Assembly: GCA_964196025.1 (NCBI GenBank) | Contig: CAXMRT010000214.1 | Coordinates: 5,233 to 69,232, forward strand | Direction of reading: 5' to 3' | DNA from: an uncultured Gemmatimonadales bacterium | GTDB lineage: Bacteria; Verrucomicrobiota; Kiritimatiellia; CAXMRT01 | DNA: 64,000 nt | Position numbers and translations under genes: made by a program | Notes under the pieces: generated by a model | Databases searched by the model: none | What the model saw: the letters and a program-made list of their open reading frames with translations, nothing else | Told to the model about the DNA's origin: nothing | Shown here: in pieces, positions 41,005 through 62,361 of the stretch | How the letters are laid out: the number at the start of each line of letters is the position of its first letter | How positions within the stretch are numbered: the first letter of the stretch is position 1

Positions 41005-42471
41005 CTAGCGAAACTCGTTTAAGGTATAATGCACCGAGTCATGCAGCAGCAGCTCGCCATCTTTCGATGTGAGTGCTGGTAAATGAAGAACATGCACGTT
41101 GCCTTTCACGCGGCCGTCAACGACCAGGTCGATCGACTTTCCGTCTTGCCCAATCGTGACGGATTGAATCACCGGCTCCGACTTGTCGACCTCAGGGCTA
41201 CCGTAACCACTCTTATAAATATAGGTATGGCTGGTCATCAACATTTTCGTCACGTCCGCAACAGACGCTGGATCGATCTCTTTGGTAAAGGTCAGCTTCC
41301 ACCCCTTCTTTGAGAGCCGCATAGTGAAAATTTCAAACGGTAATTTTCCTGTCCAGTTCGCGCGCTCCAAGCGAAACGAGTGCGGCCCCTTCGAGCCCCA
41401 ACCGCGCTCGGTGCCACCAACGAACAAGGCGCCGTCTGGCGACATGCGCACCGAGACGCTTCCCGACCCGAAACCGCTCAAGAATGGAATCGCTGCACCC
41501 TGATACACACCGTTCACAACTTCTAGGTCGCAACGCGTGATATTCGAAAAACCCTGATCCAACACCAGCAACTGACCTGCGAACGGACCAAAGTTTCCCT
41601 TCGACGAATCCGGCTCAATGCCACTCGATGATTTTCCTAACTTTCCATGTGTCAAAATGATCGCGGGTGGCACGAACTCAGGTATGCGCTTGCGCTCAAT
41701 CTCAATTCGGCTATCACTCACCGGATCCGCTGGCCGCTTCCCGATCGCATCCGTCAGGTCATAGTAAATATTCCCACTCGGGTTCCCCTGGAAGGACCCC
41801 ACTTTCAAATGCTTCAAGCAGGACGATCCGTTCCACAAACCCTGATTGTCACAATAGAACATGTCACCATTGATGTTGTTTCCAATCCCGCCTGGCGACC
41901 GAATACCACTTGTCGTGGGAATCATCTTACCGTCTTTGCTGACCCTCAAGCACCACCCACGGAAATCACTTTTCGCACCGCCTGAGCCGGTCAGACACAT
42001 CACCAACCACATGTTACCGTCTTTGTCATGCCGTGAGCCAAAGGCATACTCATGATAGTCCCCGTTGATCCCCCAATCGCTGCTCATGCTATCAAAGACA
42101 TCCGCGCGACCATCACCCGTCACATCCTTCATGCGGGTCACCTCGCAACGCTGTGCCGTCCACAGGTAGCCATCGTAGTACGACAAGCCAATTGGCTCAT
42201 GCAAGCCCTGTGCGAACGGCGTCCAAACCGTCTCTTTCGCCGGCGTCTCCCAGGCATTCTTTATGGTGTAGATGTCACCACGCCGCGAACAGACCGCAAG
42301 AGTCTTGTCAGGCATCAACTCAATCCCGACCGCCTCTAATACCACACCCTCCGGAACCGGCACTTCGGTAATGGTGTAATAGTCTGACTCTTTGGCTTTG
42401 GTCGCGGCCATCACCGTCGACGCCACCAGCATGCTCGTAACCATCCCTGCTAAAATCTGTTTCATTTCCAT
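41005..42471 (-). CDS. Secreted beta-propeller protein, glucose/sorbosone-dehydrogenase-like (PVC membrane-bound-dehydrogenase-type domain)
   Basis: Signal peptide. The blade-like repeats and overall composition resemble the N-terminal propeller of large PVC dehydrogenase/heme-binding proteins. Overlaps the upstream gene by 10 nt (same operon). Assignment by resemblance only. Confidence 0.45.
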   Translation of the reverse strand: MEMKQILAGMVTSMLVASTVMAATKAKESDYYTITEVPVPEGVVLEAVGIELMPDKTLAVCSRRGDIYTIKNAWETPAKETVWTPFAQGLHEPIGLSYYDGYLWTAQRCEVTRMKDVTGDGRADVFDSMSSDWGINGDYHEYAFGSRHDKDGNMWLVMCLTGSGGAKSDFRGWCLRVSKDGKMIPTTSGIRSPGGIGNNINGDMFYCDNQGLWNGSSCLKHLKVGSFQGNPSGNIYYDLTDAIGKRPADPVSDSRIEIERKRIPEFVPPAIILTHGKLGKSSSGIEPDSSKGNFGPFAGQLLVLDQGFSNITRCDLEVVNGVYQGAAIPFLSGFGSGSVSVRMSPDGALFVGGTERGWGSKGPHSFRLERANWTGKLPFEIFTMRLSKKGWKLTFTKEIDPASVADVTKMLMTSHTYIYKSGYGSPEVDKSEPVIQSVTIGQDGKSIDLVVDGRVKGNVHVLHLPALTSKDGELLLHDSVHYTLNEFR

Positions 42472-44240
42472 GTCAACACCTGCTCAATCGTTGCGTTATC
42501 ACCCTCGAACTCAATCGGGACAATCAGCTCTGTTGTGTCCCCGACCTTCCGCAACAGCGGCTTACAGCCTGCGAGAGTCATCGTCAACTCTGTCCCAGCC
42601 AGCTGATACCCCCCTCCAGCTTCCGTCAGGTCCCCGCGTGCGAGTAGAAAACATAGCGTCCCCGGCGGCTTCTTTCCCGACACCACAATCGTTCGTCGAA
42701 TGCCTTTCTCCTCACCCTTCACGGCCGGCACGAAGGTGTCAGTCACCTCCAAGCCATGGAACTCGTAGCGAAAGGTCGGGATCCGCTGCTCATTTAACAT
42801 GTAGCCCTTAAAGATGAACGGCTGGGTCCGCATGGTGCTCTTTGCACGAAAGTCGGTACGCGGCCACGTCGTCACGGCCACATCATCCAACACCGCGAAA
42901 GGCACCTCGTCCACAAAGGTAACCACCCGGTCGCCCTCGGGAGGCTGACTCCCTGATCCACGCCCCACCCAATGCTTACCGCCCGACATGAATGCACCCG
43001 TCCACGCCAAGGCCAAACGCATATTATCCGCATCCCAGGCGACGTTCACGCCACCCGGCAACCCTACGCCAATCGCCCGCACGCCGGCACCACTAATGAA
43101 ATTCCGGTACATCACCGCTTCCGTCTCTGTCGGCTCAATCGGAATCGACACCGAGGGCCGCTTCCTCCGCCCCCCCGAGCGAGCGGTGTCCGACAATGGC
43201 AAGGGGCGCTTCATTCCCGGCCCGCTGAGCGCCAGCGACAAACTATGCTGACCGCTTTTATCAAAATAGCCGACTTTCAACGCATGCGGACCCTTCGTCA
43301 ACTCGACAGCACCCTTCTTCATCGTGTCCGCATGAACACCGTCGTTATCCACAACCGTCTTACCGTCGATGACAAGCTGCGACCCGTCATCCGATGACAA
43401 GTGAAAGGTATAGTTACCCTCTACCGGAATCGTCACGGTTCCTTCATACAAGACCGCGGTCCCAGGCTTCACGCCTGCTGTCTTCGTACTGATTTTGCCG
43501 CTCTTCAAGGGGCCCTCTCGCAACACCTTCATCGTAGTGAAATCGGGCACTTTATCACCCTTATACGCATAGCTCTTAAACGTCAGGCCGCTCAACAACG
43601 AGCCACTACCCACCGTCATCGTGCCCTTCATCAAAGCCGCATGTCCCGGCACAGAACACACATACGGGTAGGCACCCGTCTTCGCCGGCGCTTTGAAGAA
43701 AACAGACTGTGACTCGTTCTGAAGCAAGAGCGCGGTGTTCACGAACAACTTGTCGTGCTTCGGAATGTAGCCCATGTCCAAACCCTTATCGCCCAGCGCC
43801 CACGCAGCTTGCGCAACGGCCATACCCAGTTTCGCATCACCTTTCTGACAAATCAGTAAGTTGTGCGCCATCTCATCACGATTGATAAACAGTAGTCGCA
43901 CGGCCTGATTAGGCGCGACCTTAAATGCCGTCACGTCATACAACATTTTTTGCGGAACCGTCGAAATTAGAATCGTCTTTTGAGCGCTGCCAAAACCCTT
44001 CGGGGCCGCATTTTTCTTCGCCCACGTCTCCGCTTTCTTGCGAGCCCCTGCCGACAACGCAGTCAAGGCCGTCGCGGTCCGTTTCGCCTTCGGGTCCGAT
44101 AGATCCACGAGAACCAAGCCCTGCTTATTCACATCATAGATATGACCCGACAAACGCTTCCCGTCCTTCAGCTCCCACGTCAATCCAGAAGCCCCAGCGA
44201 CAGAGGCCCCCAACACCAAACTCAACATCAAACTCTTCAT
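42462..44240 (-). CDS. Secreted azurin-like cupredoxin plus PA14-domain protein
   Basis: ATG 44240 is preceded by GGAGGG, giving signal MKSLMLSLVLGASVAGASG. Type-1 copper motif YPYVCSVPGHAALMKGTMTV (azurin-like C…H…M). PA14-like block GNYTFHLSSDDGSQLVIDGKTVVDNDG. C-terminal ~230 aa unassigned. Confidence 0.6.
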   Translation of the reverse strand: MKSLMLSLVLGASVAGASGLTWELKDGKRLSGHIYDVNKQGLVLVDLSDPKAKRTATALTALSAGARKKAETWAKKNAAPKGFGSAQKTILISTVPQKMLYDVTAFKVAPNQAVRLLFINRDEMAHNLLICQKGDAKLGMAVAQAAWALGDKGLDMGYIPKHDKLFVNTALLLQNESQSVFFKAPAKTGAYPYVCSVPGHAALMKGTMTVGSGSLLSGLTFKSYAYKGDKVPDFTTMKVLREGPLKSGKISTKTAGVKPGTAVLYEGTVTIPVEGNYTFHLSSDDGSQLVIDGKTVVDNDGVHADTMKKGAVELTKGPHALKVGYFDKSGQHSLSLALSGPGMKRPLPLSDTARSGGRRKRPSVSIPIEPTETEAVMYRNFISGAGVRAIGVGLPGGVNVAWDADNMRLALAWTGAFMSGGKHWVGRGSGSQPPEGDRVVTFVDEVPFAVLDDVAVTTWPRTDFRAKSTMRTQPFIFKGYMLNEQRIPTFRYEFHGLEVTDTFVPAVKGEEKGIRRTIVVSGKKPPGTLCFLLARGDLTEAGGGYQLAGTELTMTLAGCKPLLRKVGDTTELIVPIEFEGDNATIEQVLTWK

Positions 44241-44326
44241 AAACCCTCCATAAGTAAAAGACATGCGACAATATACTCGCCCATGACCCACATCACAACG
44301 TCAGATCCCATATCCAGATAATCGCC

Positions 44327-45679: not shown

Positions 45680-46150
45680 GTGAGTATTCTATCCAAGACG
45701 TGTCTGTACGGATTGCGGGCGATGATTTATCTAGCCGCATCCGAAGACCATAATGATCAGGAATTCGTTTCAGTCCGGAAAATTGCGGATGAATTGGATA
45801 TTTCCTTTCATTTTCTCACCAAAATTTTCCAAACATTGAACAAAGAAGAACTCGTGATCTCCTGCAGGGGCCCAAAAGGAGGCGTCGCGCTTGGTCGCCC
45901 CGCTAAAGATATCGACCTTCTTGACATCATTGAAAAAATCGATGGCTCGCAACGCCTCGACTCCTGTCTGATGGGGCTGCCAACGTGCAGCGATGAGTCC
46001 CCCTGCCCCCTCCACGACCAGTGGAAGGAAAACAGAAAGGGGCTCAAAAAGCTCTTCACTGAATCCAATCTAGGGGAGCTAGTCAGCAACATGAAATCGT
46101 CGAATATCCGGATAAACGAGACGGGTATCATTTCACTGGGCGATGACTAG
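45680..46150 (+). CDS. nsrR: Rrf2-family transcriptional regulator (NsrR/IscR-like, Fe-S cysteines present)
   Basis: N-terminal wHTH (MSILSKTCLYGLRAMIYLA…VSVRKIADELDIS) and three clustered Cys (CLMGLPTCSDESPC). Sits immediately upstream of nirK. Confidence 0.7.
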   Translation: MSILSKTCLYGLRAMIYLAASEDHNDQEFVSVRKIADELDISFHFLTKIFQTLNKEELVISCRGPKGGVALGRPAKDIDLLDIIEKIDGSQRLDSCLMGLPTCSDESPCPLHDQWKENRKGLKKLFTESNLGELVSNMKSSNIRINETGIISLGDD

Positions 46151-46180
46151 AAAAACTCTCTTTTTTCCAACCAATACGGA

Positions 46181-46224
46181 TTGACATTTGACCCATTCTA
46201 GACTAATTAAGATATAAGAGTCTT
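46181..46224 (+). promoter_or_regulatory. Candidate nirK promoter with overlapping palindromic operator
   Basis: TTGACA (46181-46186), 17-nt spacer, TAATTA (46204-46209). The imperfect palindrome AAGATATAAGAGTCTT (46209-46224) overlaps the -10/+1, a position consistent with an Rrf2 repressor site. Pattern match only. Confidence 0.3.
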
Positions 46225-46340
46225 TTATCGGTAATAGTCCTTTCCGCTGGTGGATGGGGCCTGACCCGAAAAACCGAAAAACAGGAGAATCAAACGGCCG
46301 GCACATCCCTGATGTACCGACTGGGAGAGGAAATGGAGTC

Positions 46341-47777
46341 ATGAAAACACGACACTATAAACCAGTAATATTGACCTTGGCCGCTATAATGAGCCTTGGT
46401 TTTGGACTGCAGACCGCAGACGCCCAAATAAAGGGCACAGAAAAGGCCGTTCTATTGAAGGCCCCTCAGGTTCCGCCCGTGATCACGCGAACACACGCCA
46501 CCAAAGTGATCGTTGAGATGGAAGTGAAGGAATATGTCGATAGACTCGCTGATGGTGTTGAGTACACGTTCTGGGGCTTTGGCGGCTTTGTTCCGGGCCC
46601 GTTTATCCGTGTCCGCGAAGGCGATCATGTCGAGTTTCACCTAAACAATCATCCAGATAATAAACTACCGCATAACATCGACCTGCATGCGGTGACTGGA
46701 CCAGGCGGTGGCGCGGCCTCTTCCTTTACCGCTCCCGGGCACAGCTCGACCTTCTCATTCAAGGTCCTCAATCCAGGCGTGTATGTTTACCATTGTGCGA
46801 CTGCACCCGTGGGCATGCATATTGCCAATGGCATGTATGGCCTGATTCAGGTACAGCCCAAGGAAGGCCTGCCTAAGGTTGATAAAGAATACTATGTCAT
46901 GCAGAGCGAATTCTATACAGCAGGCCGCTATGGCGAAAAGGGTCATCAGCCTTTCTCTATGGAAAAAGCGCTGGATGAACGTCCCGACTACGTCGTGTTC
47001 AACGGTTCTGTCGGTGCCTTGGTTGGCGACAATGCCATTAACGCCAAAGTTGGCGAAAACGTGCGCCTGTACGTCGGTAATGGCGGTCCAAACCTTGTCT
47101 CCTCTTTCCATGTGATTGGAGAGATTTTCGACAAAGTGAACATTGAAGGCGGCGACCTGGTGAACAAGAACGTTCAGACAACACTTGTCCCTGCCGGTGG
47201 AGCTGCCGTGGTGGAATTTAAGGTTGATGTTCCTGGAACGTTCATTATTGTGGATCACTCCATCTTCCGGACATTCAACAAGGGCTCCCTAGGCATGTTG
47301 AAAGTGACTGGAAAGGCTAACCCAGATCTGTATTCCGGAAAAACCGAGGACAGCGTCTATCAGCCTGAAGGTCAGCCAACGCTTACTACGCCACCTGCTA
47401 AGGTCCAGAAAATGACCAAGGCAGAACGCATAAAAACCGGCGAAAGGCTGTACAACACCAGCTGCTTTGCCTGCCATCAGTCCAACGGGAAAGGATTACC
47501 CAAGATTTTCCCTCCTCTGGCAAAATCCGATTACCTGCTCGCGGATGTTGATCGCGCGATCAGCGGAATTATCTATGGACAAAAAGGTCCTATGAAGGTA
47601 AATGGTGAACCGTACAACATGATCATGACACCCGTAAATCTCACAGATGACGAGATCGCAAGTGTCATGACCTTCGTCCTCAACAACTGGGGCAACAGTG
47701 GAGACGCGGTCACACCCGAGCGCGTGACGAAGATCCGCAAAAAAGGCCCTGCAAAAAATGCAGTAACGTCGAAATAG
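46341..47777 (+). CDS. nirK: Copper-containing nitrite reductase NirK with C-terminal cytochrome c domain
   Basis: ATG 46341 follows GAGAGG and gives signal [28 protein letters not shown]. Type-1/type-2 Cu blocks (…[10 protein letters not shown]…, [21 protein letters not shown]). C-terminal CxxCH (CFACHQ, ~47464-47478) marks a fused class I cytochrome c. Confidence 0.85.
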
Positions 47778-47787
47778 GGAGAAGAGC

Positions 47788-48603
47788 TTGAACCTCAGTC
47801 GGTCAATAGTCGCACTTGTTTTATTGACTGCTGGGGCGGCGGGCGCGGGTGATCTACCCGCACCGCCGAAAGCGCCTCTGGGAATGGTCTACATTGCTCC
47901 CGGCGAATATGAACCCCTTTTTAAATCAGAAGGAAAGAAAGCGGTCTCCGCTTTCTTCATGGACCGCCACCCCGTAACGAACGCCGAGTATCTCGACTTT
48001 GTAAAAGTAAATCCAAAGTGGCGAAAGTCACGTGTCAGACGCATTTTCGCGGACCACTCCTACCTAACCAAATGGGTGTCCGACGACACGCCAGGTCCAG
48101 ATCCTGAAAAATCACTAAACAGTCCTGTTGTTCATATCTCATGGCACGCCGCTCGTGCTTACGCCAAATGGAAGGGCAAGCGAATCCCCTCTCAGGCAGA
48201 ATGGGAGTATGCGGCTTCTGCCAGCAAAACGAAGCCCAACGGAAAAGAAGATCCTGACCATTACCGCTATATCCTCGATTGGTATTCACGCCCTACGCCT
48301 AAAGTAATGCCCGCGGTGGGCTCCACCTATAAAAACTACTGGGGGCTTTACGACATGCATGGCCTAGTCTGGGAGTGGGTGTCCGATTTCAACACCGCTC
48401 TAGTCACAGGAGAGTCACGGGGAGATGCCGGCTTGGAGCGTCAACTTTTTTGCGGGAGCGGCTCGGTCGGCGCCTCTGACTTCAAAGATTACGCCGCCTT
48501 CATGCGCTACGCTCTACGCAGTAGCTTAGAAGCTGATTTTACCACGGCCAATCTCGGTTTTCGTTGTGCAAAAAGTATCAACATACCCAAAAAGAAAGAC
48601 TAA
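47788..48603 (+). CDS. nirV: NirV (formylglycine-generating-enzyme/SUMF1-family protein)
   Basis: TTG start after a GGGAG RBS, 10 nt past nirK. FGE-sulfatase fold blocks (…VHISWHAARAYAKWKGKRIPSQAEWEYAA…, YWGLYDMHGLVWEWV). The nirK-nirV arrangement is well known. Confidence 0.65.
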   Translation: MNLSRSIVALVLLTAGAAGAGDLPAPPKAPLGMVYIAPGEYEPLFKSEGKKAVSAFFMDRHPVTNAEYLDFVKVNPKWRKSRVRRIFADHSYLTKWVSDDTPGPDPEKSLNSPVVHISWHAARAYAKWKGKRIPSQAEWEYAASASKTKPNGKEDPDHYRYILDWYSRPTPKVMPAVGSTYKNYWGLYDMHGLVWEWVSDFNTALVTGESRGDAGLERQLFCGSGSVGASDFKDYAAFMRYALRSSLEADFTTANLGFRCAKSINIPKKKD

Positions 48604-48605
48604 CC

Positions 48606-49232
48606 ATGAAACACGTTATCCCTTTTTCTCTCATCGCACTCGCCTTGGGGTGCACCTCATGCTCGACCATCCCACAAGAAGCAGCCTGCTGCAAGGCGCC
48701 ACTAGAAAGCGTCCAAAATGCACCGCTCTCACAGGAGTCGCTCTATCACCTGGAATCAACCTGGACGAGTCAGGAGGCCAAGACCATTTCACTGGATCAC
48801 TTCAAAGGCTCGCCAGTTTTGCTGACCATGTTCTTCAGCAATTGCGAATATGCCTGCCCGATTCTGGTTGAAAAAATGCGGTCAACCGTGGAGCAGCTGT
48901 CAGCGGATGACGCCTCACAACTACAGAAGGTCCTCATTTCTTTTGATGTGGAACGAGACACCCCTGCCGTTTTGAAAAAACACGCGATTGATCGCGGCTT
49001 AAGCAACACCGACTGGACCCTGCTGCACGGTAGCGCGGATGATGTCCTTGAAATCGCGGCGGTTCTGGGCATTCGTTATCGCCAAGAAAAGAATGGCAGT
49101 TTCGCCCATTCCAATATCATCACCCTGCTGGATAGAGATGGGTCCATCGCCTATCAGTTGAAAGGTCTAGAGTCCGAGTCCGAAGACTTACTCAAGGCCA
49201 TTAAAGAGGTCTGCGCGGATTCGAAACGCTGA
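48606..49232 (+). CDS. SCO1/SenC-family copper chaperone (thioredoxin fold), lipoprotein
   Basis: ATG 48606 lies 2 nt after the nirV stop. Lipobox (LALGCTSCS) and CxxxC copper site (MFFSNCEYACP). Confidence 0.7.
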   Translation: MKHVIPFSLIALALGCTSCSTIPQEAACCKAPLESVQNAPLSQESLYHLESTWTSQEAKTISLDHFKGSPVLLTMFFSNCEYACPILVEKMRSTVEQLSADDASQLQKVLISFDVERDTPAVLKKHAIDRGLSNTDWTLLHGSADDVLEIAAVLGIRYRQEKNGSFAHSNIITLLDRDGSIAYQLKGLESESEDLLKAIKEVCADSKR

Positions 49233-51260
49233 TCAGTCACTCGGTTCGTGACTCTTGGGTGCATCGGGATCCTGCACACCTCGCCCATCATAATCAAACA
49301 GCACAATCTCCCCCGCGCGGACCTGCAACTCATTGTCATATAAAACGCGTGGCTCGGTCACACCATCAACGATAAGAAGCGCGCGGACATCATGGGTCCC
49401 CGGCTCAAGCTCCAGGTCATGACCAAACAAGACAAGTCGACCATCACGGCGAGGCTTCAAATGCTCACGCAAGGCCTCCTGTCCGTCTAGCTCGAGTAGC
49501 AAGGTATAATCAATCGGAACGCGAACGACTTTTTGAGGTAGCCGCATATGGGCAGGAGTCGAACTCAACTCTTCCTCGGTCCATGCCCGCGCAGACTCAA
49601 CACCGTTTCCCGGTAACTCAAGCATCAGTCTGAAAACGCCTTCTGTGGGCGCTGTCCCCAAGTCCTTCATACTCATGGCCGCGATCGCCAGTACGATGAC
49701 AGAATGCGCAATAGTGGTTCGCACAATAGACGACCAGCGCGCGGTCGGTGTTAAGGCTCCGCTCCCCGACTCCGCTGATTTTTCAAGCAAGCCTCTCACA
49801 TGGGTCTCTATCAGGCCATACTCAGAACCCGCAGCGGAGATCAGCTGTATGCGCGTAAGATCCGTATCTTGCGACAAATGCGGGCCCGCTCTCCCCAACA
49901 ATCGCCCCAGCGCAAGTTCATGGCCGCGCCGATTCACACAATTTTCCTCCGGACAGGACACCACTAGAACCGATGGGACTTTTTTCATGAGATGCTCAAC
50001 CGCGTAGGCATGCACGCTGCCTGTACAGGCCACCGCATAAGGACTTATTGAAGGATATCGGAGCGACAATTTGTGAACCGTATTCTGCATGCTGCGATTC
50101 GACTCACAATAGATCAGGCATAACTCCGGGATTTTCTCACCCAAGGCATCAAGATAGCGCTCAGCTGCCTGCAGTTGATCATCACCCTTGCGGCCCGGGG
50201 GACCCACATTATAATCGTCACAACTACCCGCACACAGACCGCAACTGACACACTTGGCGGGATTGACCATCGCAAATTGACGACGACTGCCATCGTCCCG
50301 CTTCAGCATATCAATGGCCTCAAACGGACAATCTTTATAACACTGCATGCAACCAGCACAGGCGTCCGTATCTACCGTAGATTTGCGTTCCGGCCGCCGG
50401 ACACGCCACCACCAAGGCACCATCAGAAGCCCCAGTGAGCATACAGTAAAACCCACGGCAACAACGCCCGGCCCCCAACGGTCCAACAGCGGCAACCAGA
50501 AACCGGAAAATAAATCCGTTGGAAGCCGTCCAGTTAAAGCCTGCAGATCGGCTTTTGGTAAAAGTGGGGCCGAGATCAGAACCGAGCAAATAAGCAATAC
50601 AACCAACAAGGGCACAAACACACTATTCATCGGCAGCCAACGCGCACGATTAAGCCGCGCGGTATGTATCCAGATACCGGTAACCATCACAAGGGGTATC
50701 GCCACATGCAGAAACAGGTTCATAAAGAAAAATGACCCCGTAAGAGGTTCTGCCCCGCTGAACGTACGCATAATCTGGTGATTAAGAAAGGGCGCCAAGG
50801 CGATCATTCTAGCGCCGGCATTTGCCAGCCATTGCCCATGGGTGTCCCACGCCATGACATACCCGGTCCACGTCGACAACATCAACGCAAACAATAAAAC
50901 CGACCCACTGATCCAGGCCAATACACGTGGCCCCCAAGTCCGCCCCTGTATCATCATTTGCACAACATGAAAAACAACCGCCACGATGGCGATATCCGTA
51001 GCATAACGATGCATCGCCCGAATCCAACGGCCGAGATAGGCCTGATCATGGATGCGTTGCAACGACTCATACGGGTGTGACACGCTGTAAAAAAAGACTA
51101 GATATAGTCCCGTAACAAGGAGGAGCAGGAGCATCCCGACAGCCAAGGTTCCGCTACGATAAAGTGGGTTGTAGGCCGAACGGTACAGCGTGTCAAATAA
51201 ACGGATCAGCGGTGCAGTTAGGCCTTCAAGCAGGCGTTGAAGGATCGTACGTTGTTTCAT
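49233..51260 (-). CDS. Membrane fusion protein: cytochrome b N-terminal-like domain + 2x[4Fe-4S] ferredoxin domain + C-terminal domain of unknown function
   Basis: About five TM helices with conserved His pairs (…RAMHRYATDIAIVAVVFHV…; …FLHVAIPLV…). Two Cys clusters (CAGCMQCYKDCP…, CVSCGLCAGSCDD), then a ~300-aa soluble domain. Its stop codon abuts the stop of the convergent sco gene (shared TGATCA). Confidence 0.55.
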   Translation of the reverse strand: MKQRTILQRLLEGLTAPLIRLFDTLYRSAYNPLYRSGTLAVGMLLLLLVTGLYLVFFYSVSHPYESLQRIHDQAYLGRWIRAMHRYATDIAIVAVVFHVVQMMIQGRTWGPRVLAWISGSVLLFALMLSTWTGYVMAWDTHGQWLANAGARMIALAPFLNHQIMRTFSGAEPLTGSFFFMNLFLHVAIPLVMVTGIWIHTARLNRARWLPMNSVFVPLLVVLLICSVLISAPLLPKADLQALTGRLPTDLFSGFWLPLLDRWGPGVVAVGFTVCSLGLLMVPWWWRVRRPERKSTVDTDACAGCMQCYKDCPFEAIDMLKRDDGSRRQFAMVNPAKCVSCGLCAGSCDDYNVGPPGRKGDDQLQAAERYLDALGEKIPELCLIYCESNRSMQNTVHKLSLRYPSISPYAVACTGSVHAYAVEHLMKKVPSVLVVSCPEENCVNRRGHELALGRLLGRAGPHLSQDTDLTRIQLISAAGSEYGLIETHVRGLLEKSAESGSGALTPTARWSSIVRTTIAHSVIVLAIAAMSMKDLGTAPTEGVFRLMLELPGNGVESARAWTEEELSSTPAHMRLPQKVVRVPIDYTLLLELDGQEALREHLKPRRDGRLVLFGHDLELEPGTHDVRALLIVDGVTEPRVLYDNELQVRAGEIVLFDYDGRGVQDPDAPKSHEPSD

Positions 51261-51265
51261 GTGGT

Positions 51266-52156
51266 TCAGTTCTCGCTTTCAAGTCTTCGGACGGCATCCG
51301 TTAACCATTGTACCCCTGGACTGTTAAAGGTATACGCGATGCGCCCTTGCGCATCCAATACATAGACCATCGGCGGATGATAAACATCCCCGTTCTGTTC
51401 ATTGCGACTAATCGGTACCTTGTACTCCCTTAGCACATTCAGTACCTCGTCAATCTCACCGGTATAAAATCGTGTTAACGGCCCCATTTCCCATTTCCCA
51501 GCAAACGATGTCATTTCGGTTTGACGGTCGCGCCAAGGGTCGAGCGACACCACCAGCATGGGCGTGTTATCATTAAGCTCCTCAGACGCTTCCTTCAGAT
51601 CATTAAGTAATGCCGGGCAAACAGTCGTACAATGCGAAAAGGCAAAGGTTAAAATAAGCGGACGCCCCTTGAAATCTGCAGGCCCGGTCACCTCTCCATG
51701 TTGATCATGCAGTCGGAAGTTAAATGCCGGATCCTGGGTCCGCAGATAATGCTCCGGTAACGGCTCTGTGTTACCGGACCCGTAATCGGCCCGCGCAAGT
51801 GCCAGGCCGACGGTCACCCGCTCAGACACCCATACCGCTTCAGTCGACACGCCAAGCACGCACAAAAGAATGGCGACCTTGCCAAGCCACGACCCATAGA
51901 GGGCTGCGCCCCCACTCTTCAACTCATCACGATAGACGAGGATAAGGGCCAGCAACAAGCTGAGCGGACTGCCAATCAGGACCGTCCAGCCGTAGGGCTC
52001 CGGTAAGCCTGACTCCGTGCGGCCGAAGCAGGCAGTCTGAGCCTGTAGCATCCACTCAGGGGTGGACTCCGGCATGCTGAAGAAGGCAAACCCCCAGAGA
52101 ACCATCGTGGCCGCTAGCCAGCCGGCCACAAGAAACATAGACGCTAGAGGGGGCAT
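51266..52156 (-). CDS. SCO1/SenC-family copper chaperone with N-terminal membrane domain
   Basis: Three N-terminal TM helices, then a thioredoxin-fold domain with FAFSHCTTVCP (CxxxC). Confidence 0.65.
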   Translation of the reverse strand: MPPLASMFLVAGWLAATMVLWGFAFFSMPESTPEWMLQAQTACFGRTESGLPEPYGWTVLIGSPLSLLLALILVYRDELKSGGAALYGSWLGKVAILLCVLGVSTEAVWVSERVTVGLALARADYGSGNTEPLPEHYLRTQDPAFNFRLHDQHGEVTGPADFKGRPLILTFAFSHCTTVCPALLNDLKEASEELNDNTPMLVVSLDPWRDRQTEMTSFAGKWEMGPLTRFYTGEIDEVLNVLREYKVPISRNEQNGDVYHPPMVYVLDAQGRIAYTFNSPGVQWLTDAVRRLESEN

Positions 52157-52165
52157 GACAAGCGC

Positions 52166-53896
52166 TTACCCAATCTTCCAGAGCTGCGCCAGCATTTTCC
52201 AGTTTACAAAGTAATAGAGGACAAAGAAGAACAGGAAGATCATAACCAGAATGAACGTACCTGGAGCACCCTTCTTATGAACAGCCTCGACCTCTGGACC
52301 CTCATGCACCTGAGCCGGCAAGGAAAGGACTCCTGGTGGCACGTGGCCGCGGGCGGCTTCAAGAGTCTCGCCATCAAACTTACGACCAAAAAATACAGAG
52401 GCCACAGTAATCAGCACATAGGAGACTAATCCGGTCACCGCAAGAATTCCGCCAATTCCCATACCCGCCTGCATAAGAGCAACGGCAGGGTTAAATTCAA
52501 CCTGGAACAGTGCGTCCGCGAAACTGGAGTCATAATGTCGGCGAGGGACACCGAACAGTCCCATAAAGGTCATGCTCACCGACATGAGCGTAATTCCGAC
52601 ACCGAATAGATACGGCTGAATCCGCGCCAGCTTATACATACGAATCTGCTTCTGAAAAATAAGCGGAATCAGATAGTAGGTCACCGCCATAAAGGACAAG
52701 GCGGTCCCCCCCACCACAGTTACATGGAAGTGGCCAGGAATTCTCATGGTGTTGTGGGCCATGATGTTGATCTGTTCCGTTCCGAGTGTCACACCGGTAA
52801 TTCCTCCAAGGAATCCGAAGATCACGAGCGAAAGAAACATTCCGGAAAAGCCTGGATCGCCCCAAGGCGCTTTCCGCAGCCACTCAAACGTGCCGTTAGT
52901 GTAGCCCCTTAAGCGCTGTCCCATTTCAATACCGGCGGGAACAGTAAAGCCATGAATCATGCTGGCAAGAACAGCCAAGTACATCGCGTAGCTGGTATTC
53001 CAAATTTTCCACGCTGGCCCCATACCAGGATCAACCAGAAGGTGATGCGCAGACGCCATGGAGATGAAGAGAATGTAGAGGAAAAAAGCCATACGACTGA
53101 TCTTCTCATTCAAGACGACCCCGCCGACGGTCAACCCAGCCAGCAGGTACCAAATCGACACCATTGCAGCCATGTTAATCTGCTGCGAGCAGTGACCCAG
53201 TCCCCAGAAAAGAAGACGGTAAACTTGCGGGTCGATCTCCATCAATCCCAGCGACCAGAGAAAGGTCGGAATGAAAATCAATGCGCCATGAACAAGCGTC
53301 ACCACGGCAATGATCGCCGCTGTCAGTGCGCCAAACGTAACCAACGGCATGCTGCCCGGATACGTCTTCTCTTTCTTGGCTACTAATATCGTGGCTATAA
53401 ACAGGGACGACCCTATTAATGCACCAACCGCAAAAAGAATAATTCCCAGATAATAAAGAGGGTGTGCTTTAAGAGGCGGGTAGGAGGTAAACGTCACATC
53501 AGCTCGGCCAGAGAAGACCATGATCTCCACCATGATAGCGCCCACCAGCATCAGGGCAAAAGCCACCCATCCCAATTTGGGTGCCGGTAATCGACAATTT
53601 AATATGATCGGTCCCGCAAAGTATAAAACCGACATCTCAAAAAAGATGATAAAGAATATCAACATATTGAGACCGTGAGCGGTCAACAGACGGTAATACC
53701 ACACCGGCGGCAGCAGATGCACAGCCTCCCAGCGGGTTAACACGAGTAATAGAGCAGAAATACCACCGATCAAAAGACAAACGACCGCGACAACCGCATT
53801 CCACTTGATTAGGGACTCTGCCTGGCTGTCGATCTTCAGACCTGACACCGGACATTGCCGGAATTTTCCGACGATTTTTTTTGTTAACTCACTCAC
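52166..53896 (-). CDS. Heme-copper oxidoreductase superfamily subunit I, divergent (active-site Tyr absent; candidate NO reductase)
   Basis: 12-TM protein. Helix-II heme His (LTAHGLNMLIFFIIFF), CuB His in WGLGHCSQQ (canonical W-x-G-HPEVY, here HCSQQ: Tyr replaced by Gln; encoded ~53180-53207), HH pair (SAHHLLVDPG), and helix-X H-x-H (GHFHVTVVGGT). Confidence 0.8.
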   Translation of the reverse strand: MSELTKKIVGKFRQCPVSGLKIDSQAESLIKWNAVVAVVCLLIGGISALLLVLTRWEAVHLLPPVWYYRLLTAHGLNMLIFFIIFFEMSVLYFAGPIILNCRLPAPKLGWVAFALMLVGAIMVEIMVFSGRADVTFTSYPPLKAHPLYYLGIILFAVGALIGSSLFIATILVAKKEKTYPGSMPLVTFGALTAAIIAVVTLVHGALIFIPTFLWSLGLMEIDPQVYRLLFWGLGHCSQQINMAAMVSIWYLLAGLTVGGVVLNEKISRMAFFLYILFISMASAHHLLVDPGMGPAWKIWNTSYAMYLAVLASMIHGFTVPAGIEMGQRLRGYTNGTFEWLRKAPWGDPGFSGMFLSLVIFGFLGGITGVTLGTEQINIMAHNTMRIPGHFHVTVVGGTALSFMAVTYYLIPLIFQKQIRMYKLARIQPYLFGVGITLMSVSMTFMGLFGVPRRHYDSSFADALFQVEFNPAVALMQAGMGIGGILAVTGLVSYVLITVASVFFGRKFDGETLEAARGHVPPGVLSLPAQVHEGPEVEAVHKKGAPGTFILVMIFLFFFVLYYFVNWKMLAQLWKIG

Positions 53897-53905
53897 TGTA
53901 GCCTC

Positions 53906-54454
53906 CTACTCTTCCACAATGACTTTGCCAACCATCAAATGATGACCCAGTCCGCAGAACTCGTTACAAATAATTTTATACTCACCAACATCATTGGGCG
54001 TCATCTTCAACCCGTAGTCATAGCCGGGAACAACTTGAATATTGACGTTCACAGGAAACAGACTAAATCCGTGATTCAAATCTGAACTCGAAAGATGAAT
54101 CGTATATTCGGCTCCCTTTTTGAGCTTCAGAATAGGTGTCCACTGCCACATCCTGCCGAGAAGATACACATCACTCCCTGGTGGCGGTTCGACAATTGGA
54201 ATTCCCTGCTCTTCTCCGACTTTGTACTCTTCCGTGAACGCCATAACTCTCTCGACGAATTTCGCCGGTTCGACTTTGGCTCGGATGCCGGTTGGGTTCT
54301 GGCCACCCAAGAGATGCCAGATAGGCATCATCGCAAAAAGCACCAGACACCAAATAAAGGATATGGTCACCCATATCTTTTCCTGCTTGGCTGCGGGCTT
54401 CCACCACACTCCCTCTGGGGGAACTATCCCAGAATGCATTTTTCTATCAGACAT
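53906..54454 (-). CDS. Heme-copper oxidase subunit II-like cupredoxin with intact CuA motif
   Basis: N-terminal TM helix, then a cupredoxin domain with H…C-x-E-x-C-G-x2-H-x2-M (SDLNHGFS…ICNEFCGLGHHLMVGK). Confidence 0.7.
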   Translation of the reverse strand: MSDRKMHSGIVPPEGVWWKPAAKQEKIWVTISFIWCLVLFAMMPIWHLLGGQNPTGIRAKVEPAKFVERVMAFTEEYKVGEEQGIPIVEPPPGSDVYLLGRMWQWTPILKLKKGAEYTIHLSSSDLNHGFSLFPVNVNIQVVPGYDYGLKMTPNDVGEYKIICNEFCGLGHHLMVGKVIVEE

Positions 54455-54469
54455 ATTAACTCCTTAGAA

Positions 54470-54619
54470 TCAGGGTAGTTTCGCCTCTGGAAGGCTTAAA
54501 ATTTCAACCATTCCCCAAATGGTGTAAAACGCAAACATCACCACCATTCCCAACACCAGCAAGAGGATGGGCTTCTCCATCATGCGCTGCCCGAAGGGTA
54601 TTTCTTCATTATCCGACAT
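54470..54619 (-). CDS. Unannotated 49-aa single-TM peptide, first gene of the oxidase-like operon
   Basis: ATG (54619) follows GGGGA. Translation MSDNEEIPFGQRMMEKPILLLVLGMVVMFAFYTIWGMVEILSLPEAKLP. Ends 15 nt before the subunit II start. Below the 60-aa cutoff of the ORF track. Confidence 0.4.
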   Translation of the reverse strand: MSDNEEIPFGQRMMEKPILLLVLGMVVMFAFYTIWGMVEILSLPEAKLP

Positions 54620-54933: not shown

Positions 54934-54975
54934 TGTTCGATGTTCGATGTTCAACGTTCGATGTTCAACGTTCAA
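54934..54975. repeat. Tandem heptamer array YGTTCRA x6
   Basis: TGTTCGA TGTTCGA TGTTCAA CGTTCGA TGTTCAA CGTTCAA, read directly from the sequence. Confidence 0.8.
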
Positions 54976-55024
54976 CCGTCATCCCCTCCTCTCTGTACCG
55001 CTCGAAAGGACGCGTCAAACAGTC

Positions 55025-56539
55025 CTACTCCAACTCGTACTCTTTCCGTAAGGTCGCGAGCTTTCCCTTCATCAACTCGAACTGAGCCTGATATTCCGGG
55101 TTTCGGGAGAGGTCAGATACTTCGGTGGGATCCGTTTGTAGGTCAAACAAGTTGTATCCATCATCGGAATAGAAGTTGATCAGCTTGTAGCGCTCATCTC
55201 GCACCCCTTCATGCCGCGGCACGCCATGCTCACCTCCGTGCTCATAGTAGTGATAATACACCGCATCCCGCCACGGTGCTTTCACATCCGCAAAGAGGGG
55301 AAGCAGGCTCTCCCCTTGCACGTCTTCCGGAATGTCCAAACCCGCAGCATCAAGAAAGGTTGGCGCATAATCGATGTTCTGGATCAACTGTTCATACCGA
55401 GTCCCTGCGTTGATTCGCTCCGGCCACCGAATCAAAAACGGCATCTTCATGGACTCTTCAAACATCCACCGCTTGTCGTACCACCCATGTTCTCCCAGAT
55501 AAAACCCCTGGTCAGAACTATAAATAACAATCGTGTTCTCTTTCAATCCGTTCTCATCAAGATAGCTCAGCACACGGCCCACGTTCTCATCAACGGAATC
55601 AATACAACGCAAATAGTTCTTCACGTAACGCTGATACTTCCAGCGAAGGAGATCCTTGCCGGTCGGGGCCTCCTCAAGGAATGCGTTGTTGCGCGGTATC
55701 CAAACAGCATCCCATGCCTTCTGCTGCTCAGGATTCATTCGGAGATATTCGTAGTCCTTCTTTCGTCGCTCCCAGCGGCTAGCAAACGGAACCTTCTGCC
55801 GCACCCGCAGGTCATAGCTATAGTAGAGATACTTATCGAGCGACATTCTGTTTTTCTTGAGCGTCTTGCTCCGATTGCTGTAATCATCAAACAAAGTCGC
55901 GGGCTCGGGAATATCCACACCTTCATACTTCGCTAGATGCTTCAGGTCCGGCGCCCACGTACGATGCGGCGCCTTATACTGACAAAGAAGCAAGAATGGC
56001 TTTTCCTCATCCCGCTCATCCAACCACTTCAAACTCATGTCCGTCACCAGCGTCGTCGAGTAACCCGTGTATCTGGTCTGGCTTGTCGCGGTCATAAAGA
56101 CAGGGTTATAGTAGGAACCCTGATCAGGAAAAACTTCCCACGAGTCGAAACCCGTCGGCTCAGACTTTAGATGCCACTTGCCAAACACGCCGGTTTGATA
56201 ACCGCCCTTTTGCAAGGCTTGCGGGAAAGTGAACTGCGTATTATCGAATGAGGCCTTACCGAGATTGCCATAATAGTGGTTCTTGTGACTCATTTTACCC
56301 GTCACCACACTTGCTCGACTCGGGCCGCATATGGAATTGTTACAAAACGAGTTGATGAACACCGCACCTTCATCAGCCAGTCGATCAATATTCGGCGTCT
56401 TGTTTATTTTCGACCCATACGCACCAATCGATTGACAGGCATGATCATCGGTAAAAATGAAAAGAATATTCGGCTGCTTCCCAAATGAAACCAACGCGAA
56501 AAACGCCCCCACAATCATCAACAAACATCTAACCCACAT
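55025..56539 (-). CDS. S1-family sulfatase (Cys-type), secreted
   Basis: Signal peptide, ILFIFTDDHA, and formylglycine motif CGPSR (SICGPSRASVVTGK). Confidence 0.8.
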   Translation of the reverse strand: MWVRCLLMIVGAFFALVSFGKQPNILFIFTDDHACQSIGAYGSKINKTPNIDRLADEGAVFINSFCNNSICGPSRASVVTGKMSHKNHYYGNLGKASFDNTQFTFPQALQKGGYQTGVFGKWHLKSEPTGFDSWEVFPDQGSYYNPVFMTATSQTRYTGYSTTLVTDMSLKWLDERDEEKPFLLLCQYKAPHRTWAPDLKHLAKYEGVDIPEPATLFDDYSNRSKTLKKNRMSLDKYLYYSYDLRVRQKVPFASRWERRKKDYEYLRMNPEQQKAWDAVWIPRNNAFLEEAPTGKDLLRWKYQRYVKNYLRCIDSVDENVGRVLSYLDENGLKENTIVIYSSDQGFYLGEHGWYDKRWMFEESMKMPFLIRWPERINAGTRYEQLIQNIDYAPTFLDAAGLDIPEDVQGESLLPLFADVKAPWRDAVYYHYYEHGGEHGVPRHEGVRDERYKLINFYSDDGYNLFDLQTDPTEVSDLSRNPEYQAQFELMKGKLATLRKEYELE

Positions 56540-57676: not shown

Positions 57677-58129
57677 TCAAGCGCCAACGGCCCGCGACAT
57701 TAGGTAGTGCTCACCAATCGTCGGTATCTCAAACGCCTCACCATGCGTCTCAAACCCCGCGCCCACATAGAAACCCTGCGCCGCCACCCGCGCATTGCAC
57801 CACAAGCGCGTCGCTCCAGCCTCAACCACATGCGCAACACAAGCCTCCAACACCGCTCGTCCAATACCCTGCCCTTGCAACTCCAAATCTACCGCCATGC
57901 CCCGCAAGCGCCAGACATCGGCCCCTGCAAACTGCTCATGCTCCTCACCAAACACCGAGCCGACGCCTACCAAATCATCATCCATCCACGCGCCAACATG
58001 CATCGCGCGCGCAGCATAATCATTGGGAAACACACTCTCCGACTCGGGCAAGCCTGGTCGCAAAATCTCACATCGCAAAGGGAGCGTCTGCTCAACCGTA
58101 ATCTGGGTAACCATCACTGAGCGACTCAT
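57677..58129 (-). CDS. GNAT-family N-acetyltransferase
   Basis: Acetyl-CoA binding block (RLRGMAVDLELQGQGIGRAVL). ATGA overlap with the upstream sulfatase-family gene. Confidence 0.7.
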   Translation of the reverse strand: MSRSVMVTQITVEQTLPLRCEILRPGLPESESVFPNDYAARAMHVGAWMDDDLVGVGSVFGEEHEQFAGADVWRLRGMAVDLELQGQGIGRAVLEACVAHVVEAGATRLWCNARVAAQGFYVGAGFETHGEAFEIPTIGEHYLMSRAVGA

Positions 58130-60526: not shown

Positions 60527-60565
60527 TCCACTTCTCCAGCTCTCCAGCTCTTCAGTTCTTCACTT
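60527..60565. repeat. CCCGTCCACTTC + TCCAGCTC octamer tandem array
   Basis: GTCCACTTC TCCAGCTC TCCAGCTC TTCAGTTC TTCACTTC. Related to the array at 63236-63287. Confidence 0.7.
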
Positions 60566-62140: not shown

Positions 62141-62278
62141 ACAAATCCCCTTAAGTTGAAGAATCACAGTACACACCACCCTCCCAACATTCAACCCCAT
62201 CATACAACCCGCACCCAAACCCGCGTTTACCACAACGCAACCGAGAATACACCCTAACCGCGTGGGCTGCTTCCCTAC

Positions 62279-62361
62279 GGGTAAGCCGCAACTACACCAA
62301 ACCCAACAGCACAGATATGCTCTCATCTAACCTACGGATGCTTGTGTAGTGCGTCTGACCC
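62279..62361. repeat. Palindromic intergenic element, copy 4
   Basis: GGGTAAGCCGCAACTACACCAA (62279-62300) and CTTGTGTAGTGCGTCTGACCC (62341-62361) flank a 40-nt spacer ending …TCTAACCTACGGATG (compare copy 1 …GCTAACCTACGGGTG). Confidence 0.65.

Follow-up and report, generated by a model that had tools for sequence, protein, structure and literature searches.

What is the function of a single polypeptide that combines a cytochrome b domain, ferredoxin-type cysteine motifs and a further large domain, and that is encoded at the end of an operon for a heme-copper oxidase (HCO)-like enzyme? This question is raised by a gene in a stretch of 64,000 nucleotides (the window) of contig CAXMRT010000214.1 from an uncultured Gemmatimonadales bacterium with the GTDB lineage Kiritimatiellia. 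An initial annotation, made from the letters of the window, had read the product as a fusion of a cytochrome b N-domain with a 2x[4Fe-4S] ferredoxin and a large soluble domain and had proposed that it serves as a dedicated electron-input module of the HCO. We found that the gene encodes a real, conserved redox protein which joins a b6/bc1-type cytochrome b to iron-sulfur (Fe-S) domains of the Hdr/Mvh type and which, as a sequence, is one of many public orthologues. The neighboring HCO was assigned to the eNOR type of nitric oxide (NO) reductases. The fusion protein is very probably a redox partner dedicated to this enzyme, and we tentatively propose, at a probability of roughly 40%, that the fusion protein is a dedicated electron-transfer subunit of eNOR.

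In the protein database, the fused form has at least 498 full-length relatives (E < 1e-130, 35–61% identity). Where these were named, they were only referred to as "cytochrome b N-terminal domain-containing protein" or "4Fe-4S binding protein". Residue invariance was determined on 118 homologues, which also served to build an AlphaFold2 (AF2) model. In this model the whole chain folds confidently as one unit (pLDDT 93.3, pTM 0.91). The large number of full-length homologues and the confident model indicate that the observed pattern is not due to chance. According to the model, an amphipathic helix at the N-terminus precedes six transmembrane (TM) helices, and the last of these, helix F, is followed by a small ferredoxin fold, an alpha/beta domain (aa 359-496), another TM helix (aa 508-529) and an all-beta domain (aa 532-658). 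Hence, what had been described as a C-terminal soluble domain of ~300 aa in fact comprises three parts, an MvhD-like domain, TM helix 7 and a periplasmic beta-sandwich. Segments rich in lysine and arginine occur at the N-terminus, in the B-C loop, in the D-E loop and in the loop after helix F. Together with the homology to cytochrome b, these segments indicate that the Fe-S domains are cytoplasmic and that the last domain is periplasmic, so that the topology prediction called for by the initial annotation assigns the Fe-S domains to the cytoplasmic side. Conservation is highest in the cytochrome b core, with a mean identity to the window sequence of 60%, followed by the Fer4 domain (53%) and by the MvhD-like and periplasmic domains (28% each).

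The N-terminal part passed the curated profile cut-offs of two cytochrome b families, PF00033 (Cytochrome_B; aa 28-203, E 1e-15, 58.4 bits versus a cut-off of 27.2) and PF13631 (Cytochrom_B_N_2; E 1e-8, 35.7 bits versus 27). A profile built from 23 homologues matched cytochrome b6 in the PDB at E 2e-21 and cytochromes b of bc1 complexes down to 1e-8, and about 285 columns could be aligned to bc1 cytochrome b by Foldseek. TM helices were predicted by AF2 at aa 32-57 (A), 78-105 (B), 110-137 (C), 175-200 (D), 212-228 (E) and 256-279 (F), and the cytochrome b part consists of these six helices only. His84/His98 and His185/His199 are located in helices B and D, respectively; each pair is 14 residues apart (H-x13-H), and all four residues are invariant (118/118). 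Both the Pfam and PDB matches and the canonical His spacing thus argue against the earlier caveat that the N-terminus might not be cytochrome-b-like, and the di-heme-like His pairs noted before are real. H84 and H98 align with H86 and H100 of cytochrome b6, and we predict from the sequence that the two pairs on helices B and D are the ligands of two b hemes. An hhalign comparison with bovine cytochrome b gave a probability of 96% and aligned aa 24-290 to residues 16-308, spanning helices A-F and the ef loop, with the register of helix D off by about one turn; H185 and H199 are regarded as ligands by our own reading because of the HxxxP motif and the 14-residue spacing. In the same alignment, D249 is positioned at the Glu of the PEWY motif, which here reads PxDxF. 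D249 is kept in 118/118 homologues and W255 in 115/118. The cd loop reads TGYxxxWD, similar to TGYSLPWDQ in b6, and W138 and D139 are both invariant (118/118).

The region following helix F gave matches to Fer4 and Fer4_7 at aa 295-348 (E 7e-8 and 3e-7) with scores above the respective cut-offs (PF00037, 32.5 versus 21.1 bits; PF12838, 31.4 versus 27 bits). The Cys motifs are C301AGC-MQC-YKDC-P (301-311) and C337VSC-GLC-AGSC-D (337-347), and all eight Cys are invariant. Pfam matches and invariant His and Cys residues therefore bear out the fusion of a cytochrome b N-domain with a 2x[4Fe-4S] ferredoxin in one polypeptide. Of the two CxxCxxCxxxCP motifs claimed before, both are present, but only the first ends in CP. 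In the PDB, the 23-homologue profile matched the C-terminal ferredoxin domain of HdrA (E 3e-15), and the Fer4 and MvhD-like domains as a unit matched the C-terminus of HdrA2 (E 9.5e-12). The MvhD-like domain scored 21.3 bits against PF02662 within the whole protein, which is below the gathering cut-off of 22.3, but 25.1 bits when isolated, and the Defluviimonas homologue reached 33.6 bits. With a 24-sequence profile of this domain, five MvhD chains of known structure were detected (E 2e-6 to 1e-4), among them 8rvv_F, 9sw2_D and 5odc_D at 2e-6 to 2e-5, and the alignments match up the motifs vdCaG and GCpxrnC. C385, C412, C436 and C441 are invariant. The domain probably holds an Fe-S site, predicted to be of the [2Fe-2S] type.

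Structure prediction of the C-terminal ~300 aa had been suggested as a check, and by AF2, Foldseek and profile searches the MvhD/FlpD-like part was recognised while the beta-sandwich remained unmatched. The latter gave no Pfam match even at E <= 1 and no NCBIfam match even at E <= 0.1, and a Foldseek search against the PDB returned only weak Ig/C2/MHC-like matches (E >= 8e-3, TM-score < 0.3). His571 and Met572, which form part of a PxHMR motif, are its only invariant residues within the 118 sequences; the His is replaced by Asn in Defluviimonas. Most homologues have a pair of Cys residues in this domain, with a Cys at the second position in 105/118, but the pair is absent from the window protein and its clade. 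A profile of the beta-sandwich collected 1246 representative clusters (50% identity). Among the best 150 of these, the domain occurs either at the C-terminus of proteins of ~650-750 aa or in stand-alone proteins of ~165-205 aa; shorter proteins of intermediate length are probably fragments. In Defluviimonas and other Rhodobacteraceae, the cytochrome b/Fe-S protein stops after the MvhD-like domain and the TM helix and beta-sandwich are encoded by a separate downstream open reading frame (ORF) of 172-177 aa that overlaps the stop codon of the cytochrome b/Fe-S gene (loci L081 and L088). Thousands of the 525-aa alphaproteobacterial form are present in the protein database, and the best 120 matches of a search with the Defluviimonas protein were all from Alphaproteobacteria.

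Within the window, the fusion gene is the last of five genes on the minus strand, preceded by those for a 49-aa TM protein, the CuA subunit II, HCO subunit I and a SCO1 protein. Gaps of 5 nt (fusion gene-SCO), 9 nt (SCO-HCO I) and 9 nt (HCO I-HCO II), and of 5-15 nt across all five genes, are in line with the earlier view that the gene is co-operonic with the HCO-like enzyme. A survey of one genome per GTDB species identified relatives in 427 species. The best 80 of the 427 loci, to which the following counts refer, originate from Kiritimatiellia, Bdellovibrionota, Gemmatimonadota, Methylomirabilia, Thermoanaerobaculia, Latescibacterota, Acidobacteriota and others, and the closest named relatives are from metagenome-assembled genomes (MAGs) of Kiritimatiellia (47-48% identity). 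In all 74 loci that could be evaluated, the same HCO subunit I (700-900 bits) adjoins the fusion gene; the remaining 6 of the 80 are cut by contig ends. The co-occurrence with the HCO, which the initial annotation had named as a check, therefore extends to several phyla. The genes are colinear in the order II-I-SCO-fusion gene in 39 loci and divergent in 35, where the fusion gene lies 0.4-0.9 kb from II-I-SCO, mostly in Gemmatimonadota. SCO is adjacent in 73/80 loci. Start/stop overlaps or gaps of a few nt between SCO and the fusion gene were seen in the window and in annotated related loci (a 4-nt overlap in L084 and L088).

Several of the other neighbors have functions related to NO. A NirK-NirV-SCO set is adjacent in 7/80 loci, and a set of Rrf2, NirK-cytochrome c, NirV and SCO genes also lies beside the fusion gene in L084. 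An Rrf2 regulator is encoded in 16/80 loci. De novo clustering of neighboring ORFs was contaminated by spurious long ORFs from GC-rich genomes, and only this Rrf2 cluster was usable. Among the neighbors in annotated related loci, there are also genes for NnrS and hemerythrin. Hemerythrin-domain genes are situated just downstream of or near the eNOR/cytochrome b-Fe-S cluster in alphaproteobacterial and Methylomirabilota loci (L081, 11110-11514; L086, 12651-13247; L088, 10121-10522 and 2177-2653), and their products may be O2/NO-binding or Fe-S-repair partners. Surveys of the 80 loci by tblastn and blastp revealed no conserved neighbors beyond HCO II/I and SCO, with noisy ORF clustering and no search aimed specifically at Rieske or c1 genes; in the operons of the Pfam-annotated contexts no gene for a Rieske protein or cytochrome c1/f was found. 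At the level of the locus, neither the Rieske and c1/f partners nor the eight helices (or b6 plus subunit IV) that bc1/b6f complexes require are provided.

The best relative of HCO subunit I in the PDB is a ba3 oxidase (E 3e-50). Tyr237 of ba3, the cross-linked Tyr, aligns with the second Gln of the GHCSQQIN motif of the window protein. A Gln at this position is the signature of eNOR, while sNOR and CuANOR have Asn (PMC8756737, Table A4). The window HCO is 48% identical to HCOs encoded on Thermus thermophilus plasmids and a Thermomicrobium roseum megaplasmid, with which it shares the motif GH(G/S)(A/S)QQ(V/I)N, and the Gln-containing motif is kept in 13 related HCOs. The GH..., HH and HFH motifs, which provide three active-site and two heme-ligand His residues, and the CuA-binding subunit II are those expected of an eNOR. 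The Thermus HCO has HFK instead of HFH, with a Lys at the position of the low-spin heme ligand, in agreement with the His/Lys ligation of the low-spin heme reported for "some eNORs". The alphaproteobacterial loci match the common make-up of eNOR operons, i.e. eNOR II, eNOR I, heme o synthase and sco1. Based on the Gln at the Tyr position, the relatives in Thermus and T. roseum, the make-up of the operons and a different fourth gene in sNOR clusters, we assigned the neighboring HCO, by its sequence, to the eNOR type. On the Thermus thermophilus plasmid pTthSNM6-6b, the eNOR-like HCO gene is followed by one for an Rrf2 regulator (L083, 4983-6668), and on the T. roseum megaplasmid a fused CtaA-CtaB protein of 600 aa is encoded downstream of the eNOR-like HCO (L082, 5004-8643).

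An assignment of the locus to the sNOR cluster norSY-senC-orf1 of ammonia oxidisers was rejected as the window HCO has Gln and not Asn at the Tyr position. An equivalence of the fusion gene to orf1 of that cluster is likewise unsupported, as the fourth gene there encodes a six-TM protein of ~190 aa versus a 675-aa cytochrome b/Fe-S protein here. In Nitrosomonas europaea, the sNOR cluster is given as NE0683-86 (PMC4940428, Table 1). According to supplementary transcriptome tables, senC is NE0682, norY is NE0683, norS is NE0684 and NE0685 is leuC (PMC6967387); by these locus tags orf1 should be NE0681 and the correct cluster NE0681-0684. NE0681 was 2.2-fold up under O2 limitation (PMC6967387).

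Table 1. Features of the fusion gene and its surroundings, in window positions.
Feature	Position	Strand	Properties
Fusion gene	49233..51260	minus	single ORF, ATG start, 675 aa; cytochrome b, 2x[4Fe-4S], MvhD-like domain, TM7, periplasmic beta-sandwich
Cytochrome b four-helix core, aa 28-204	50649..51179	minus	predicted ligands H84, H98, H185, H199; b6-like cd loop TGYxxxWD
Helices E and F with ef loop, aa 205-285	50406..50648	minus	invariant D249 in PxDxF, aligned to Glu of bc1 PEWY
2x[4Fe-4S] ferredoxin domain, aa 295-350	50211..50378	minus	Pfam Fer4/Fer4_7; 8 invariant Cys
MvhD/FlpD-like alpha/beta domain, aa 351-502	49755..50210	minus	PF02662 match; invariant C385, C412, C436, C441
Seventh TM helix, aa 508-529	49674..49739	minus	hydropathy and AF2; predicted to bring the chain back to the periplasm
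Periplasmic beta-sandwich, aa 532-658	49287..49667	minus	AF2 pLDDT 91; invariant His571-Met572
SCO1/SenC copper chaperone	51266..52156	minus	296 aa, three N-terminal TM helices; PF02630, E 4e-23
HCO subunit I, assigned as eNOR-type	52166..53896	minus	PF00115, E 2e-68; GHCSQQIN, HH and HFH motifs
HCO subunit II	53906..54454	minus	complete CuA motif H-x34-CNEFCGLGHHLM; TIGR02866 CoxB, E 2e-12
49-aa single-TM ORF, head of operon	54470..54619	minus	own Shine-Dalgarno-like sequence; no family match
Rrf2/NsrR-like regulator	45680-46150	plus	C-x6-C-x5-C motif (NsrR/IscR-like)
NirK-cytochrome c fusion	46254-47777	plus	cytochrome c domain C-terminal; TIGR02376, 350 bits
NirV-like FGE-sulfatase-family protein	47788-48603	plus	
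nirK-linked SCO1	48564-49232	plus	222 aa, single TM

Domain identities, invariant ligands, topology and strict synteny with an eNOR-type HCO and SCO in an NO context are established by these analyses. A dedicated electron-input module, as envisaged by the initial annotation, is the most plausible class of function, and we predict the partner in the cytoplasm, the acceptor in the periplasm and the direction of flow as follows. The fusion protein would be a seven-helix membrane redox protein with its cofactor sites in one line across the membrane. The first stretch of this line would be formed in the cytoplasm by the putative [2Fe-2S] site of the MvhD-like domain, as the entry or exit point, and the two [4Fe-4S] sites. 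The second would lead over the b heme at the negative (N) side to that at the positive (P) side of a b6/bc1-type cytochrome b with a putative Qo-like pocket. The TM-anchored beta-sandwich would probably dock the protein to an eNOR/SCO complex. Electrons from a low-potential cytoplasmic donor and/or the quinol pool would thus reach the periplasmic side and pass through CuA to the NO-reducing site, so that the bc1/cytochrome c chain would not be required for NO reduction. Predicted likewise are complex formation, the donor, and the occupancy of the sites by two b hemes, two [4Fe-4S] and one [2Fe-2S] cluster. The expected potentials are low for the Fe-S clusters, intermediate for the b hemes and high for CuA. 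Outward flow is preferred because this order makes it downhill and because all centers are then used in one line. We also count in favor of a role in eNOR function the NO-related neighbors (NirK-cytochrome c, NirV, Rrf2/NsrR, NnrS and hemerythrin) and the restriction of the beta-sandwich, among the best 150 clusters, to the C-terminus of such proteins or to stand-alone proteins.

A number of points weigh against this proposal. Cofactors, interaction and activity are predictions. Purified eNOR of R. marinus works with artificial donors of the periplasmic type (PMC11214002), and taken together with the complete CuA site of eNOR this implies that a special input is not obviously needed. The eNOR-like loci of Thermus (L083) and T. 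roseum (L082) contain neither the fusion gene nor SCO. No gene of the window cluster encodes a cytoplasmic protein with which the MvhD-like domain could partner, and His571 and Met572 appear too few as invariant ligands of the beta-sandwich to define a redox center. A simple outward wire would have no need of a conserved Qo-like pocket. Finally, the fusion gene tracks SCO as tightly as the HCO, so that a role in maturation would fit equally well.

Such a role would make the protein an assembly factor rather than a catalytic subunit. As a maturation reductase, it would export cytoplasmic electrons to keep the thiols of SCO1 reduced or to reduce Cu(II) to Cu(I) (or Fe), and thereby support the loading of CuA and the active-site metals of eNOR, with the beta-sandwich serving as a dock for metal or SCO. 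SCO is encoded directly beside the fusion gene, separated by 5 nt in the window and overlapping by 4 nt in L084 and L088, the eNOR-like loci devoid of SCO are also those devoid of the fusion gene, and a second SCO accompanies nirK. The SCO of the operon is unusual in having three TM helices, which might allow it to pack against cytochrome b. Both the invariant His-Met and the frequent Cys pair of the periplasmic domain are typical soft-metal ligands, but the Cys pair is missing in the window protein and its clade, and no similarity in sequence or fold to PCuAC, CopC or Cox11 was detected by Pfam and Foldseek. Five redox centers and a conserved Qo-like pocket would moreover be a heavy investment for a chaperone reductase, the known reduction of Sco proceeds via thiol pathways of the TlpA/DsbD type, and the gene is divergent from the HCO-SCO genes in Gemmatimonadota. 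We consider maturation an unlikely role. A different use of the same centers is suggested by the Qo-like elements, D249 at the position of the PEWY Glu and the cd loop, which are conserved alongside an Fe-S outlet on the N side, at the place of Qi in bc1. Quinol might be oxidised at the P-side pocket in a Qo-type bifurcation without a Rieske protein, or in reverse flow, with one electron falling via eNOR to the very high-potential NO/N2O couple and this drop driving the other over both b hemes into the cytoplasmic [4Fe-4S]/[4Fe-4S]/[2Fe-2S] chain to reduce ferredoxin or NAD(P)+. A TM anchor with a beta-sandwich head is also the architecture of the Rieske subunit, whose docking role the head would take over; yet the periplasmic domain lacks a Rieske-type or other evident redox center. 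A putative variant in Ferrigenium has FAD and NADH domains, and a coupling of quinol:NAD+ oxidoreduction to the reduction of NO was proposed for it. As no flavin or NAD domain or partner is present in the window cluster, as most carriers are heterotrophs with no obvious need of reverse electron transport, and as the case is wholly inferential, we regard bifurcation as quite improbable.

Very unlikely, in our estimate, are two further functions. In one, the protein would form an inward redox loop similar to Nar, with quinol oxidised at the P side and electrons passed to a cytoplasmic acceptor unrelated to eNOR turnover. This has parallels in the di-heme b and cytoplasmic Fe-S proteins of NarI-NarH, DsrMK and QmoC, but leaves the strict linkage to eNOR and the periplasmic domain unexplained. 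In the other, the protein would be a heme-modification helper that supplies electrons for the hemes of eNOR and replaces or partners heme A synthase. The idea arises from CtaA: a tblastn search of limited sensitivity detected no CtaA homologue within 7-10 kb in 84 loci bearing the fusion gene (L001-L080, L084-L086, L088) or in the window, while the T. roseum locus, which lacks the fusion gene, has the CtaA-CtaB fusion. "Many eNOR operons contain CtaA" (PMC11214002), and a heme o synthase gene lies within the alphaproteobacterial operons. A complementary distribution of the fusion protein and CtaA is thus possible, but the anti-correlation is based on very few loci without the fusion gene, and the fold is unrelated to that of CtaA.

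Among known systems, cytochrome b6 (PetB) and the cytochrome b of bc1 share with the fusion protein a di-heme core of four helices, of which B and D carry the His pairs, a cd loop of the b6 type, the subsequent helices E and F with an acidic residue at the PEWY position, and a cytoplasmic N-terminus. In contrast to bc1/b6f, the cytochrome b part ends after helix F, without helices G/H or a complete equivalent of subunit IV, and PxDxF replaces PEWY. The operon lacks genes for Rieske, c1 and f. At the N side, the expected place of the Qi site is taken by the fused ferredoxin and MvhD domains, and the protein additionally has a seventh TM helix and a periplasmic domain. In the systems QmoC (together with the MvhD-like domain of QmoB), HdrED and DsrMK/HmeCD, a membrane di-heme b is likewise wired to cytoplasmic Fe-S domains, a 2x[4Fe-4S] ferredoxin-like module and one of the MvhD type. 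However, these have cytochromes b of the NarI/HdrE type, flavoprotein or CCG-domain partners and roles in sulfur or methane metabolism, whereas the protein described here has a b6/bc1-type cytochrome, no flavoprotein nearby and eNOR as its probable partner. The sNOR cluster norSY-senC-orf1 and the Bacillus qCuANOR similarly combine a B-family-derived HCO devoid of the Tyr and a CuA subunit with senC/SCO and a fourth gene for a membrane protein, but sNOR and bNOR, the latter being the Bacillus enzymes, have Asn at the Tyr position and the fourth protein of these clusters is described as having ~190 aa and six TM helices, which makes them a separate system. The best NCBIfam match to the cytochrome b part was ExtP, a b-type cytochrome of selenite/tellurite reduction operons (NF040969; aa 34-206, 91 bits, far below the cut-off of 290). 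ExtP is a stand-alone cytochrome b of 205 aa without Fe-S or periplasmic domains.

The most closely related description is that of the eNOR operon of Ferrigenium straubiae, in which two genes "with partial similarity to bc1 chain C" were called "rather unusual" (preprint 10.64898/2026.01.22.701106; IMG 2878407319, 2878407323). One encodes cytochrome b and [Fe-S] domains, the other cytochrome b, [Fe-S], FAD and NADH-binding domains. Both proteins were found in the proteome under denitrifying growth, and a quinol:NAD+ oxidoreductase supercomplex was proposed (10.64898/2026.01.22.701106). These genes are located in one operon together with those for eNOR II, eNOR I, heme o synthase and sco1 and are likened to the fusion gene by description only; the FAD/NADH domains of one of them have no counterpart here, and the preprint mentions neither an MvhD-like nor a periplasmic domain. 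If they are homologous to the family described here, the idea of such an eNOR partner is not new. The present analysis contributes the wide occurrence of the family and its strict synteny, the existence of both fused and split forms, and the recognition of the MvhD-like domain, of TM helix 7, of the unannotated periplasmic domain and of the Qo-like residues. Genes similar by description to those seen as unusual in Ferrigenium are widespread, with relatives of the fusion gene occurring in 427 GTDB species. The main text of the paper that defined eNOR does not mention the gene.

The surroundings of the operon complete the picture of an NO-metabolism island, which spans 45.7-54.6 kb of the window. 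A NirK operon (45680..49232, +) converges on the eNOR operon, and its TGA stop codon at 49230-32 abuts that of the fusion gene at 49233-35 with zero intergenic bases. No clear terminator was found between the convergent operons, and a promoter scan gave nothing above shuffled expectation. The two SCO1/SenC paralogues of the window differ in size and topology, the eNOR-operon copy having 296 aa and three TM helices and the nirK-linked copy 222 aa and one. The 49-aa TM protein at the head of the operon is likely a small subunit in the position of ba3 subunit IIa; an ORF of 50-59 aa occupies the same position in L084-L086, L088 and L089. Upstream of the eNOR operon, between this region and the end of a sulfatase gene, we observed a tandem repeat at 54934-54976 with a 7/14-nt unit, TGTTCAACGTTCGA, in about 3 copies with 92% matches. 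A few kb from the denitrification genes, a 609-aa protein with a plastocyanin/azurin-like copper-binding domain and PA14 is encoded (42462-44291, -), which could be a cupredoxin electron carrier or unrelated. Sulfatase genes (Sulfatase and SGSH_C) and a gene for a 3-keto-disaccharide hydrolase flank the island (55025-56539, 58126-59589 and 60560-62326 (-)). Such flanks are typical of polysaccharide-degrading genomes of the Kiritimatiellota/PVC (Planctomycetes-Verrucomicrobia-Chlamydiae) type and are consistent with Kiritimatiellia MAGs as the source of the closest relatives.

Proof that eNOR is a true NO reductase came only in 2024, and the enzyme is reported to be among the commonest N2O-forming enzymes in nature (PMC11214002). 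A conserved partner with five predicted redox centers, two b hemes and three Fe-S clusters, implies an electron route that has so far gone unrecognised and that connects NO reduction to the cytoplasm and/or the quinol pool. Such a route is relevant to energy conservation by eNOR-based denitrification, to the robustness of NO detoxification when the cytochrome c chain is inhibited and to how the potential for eNOR-based denitrification is read from genomes, and the enzyme that would be served produces the greenhouse gas N2O. The periplasmic domain represents a sizeable unannotated family of about 1,250 clusters at 50% identity, for which the fused and split forms offer an experimental handle. 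Should the protein bifurcate electrons, denitrification would directly generate low-potential reductant, a new route from a respiratory reaction by which NO reduction would pay for cellular reductant.

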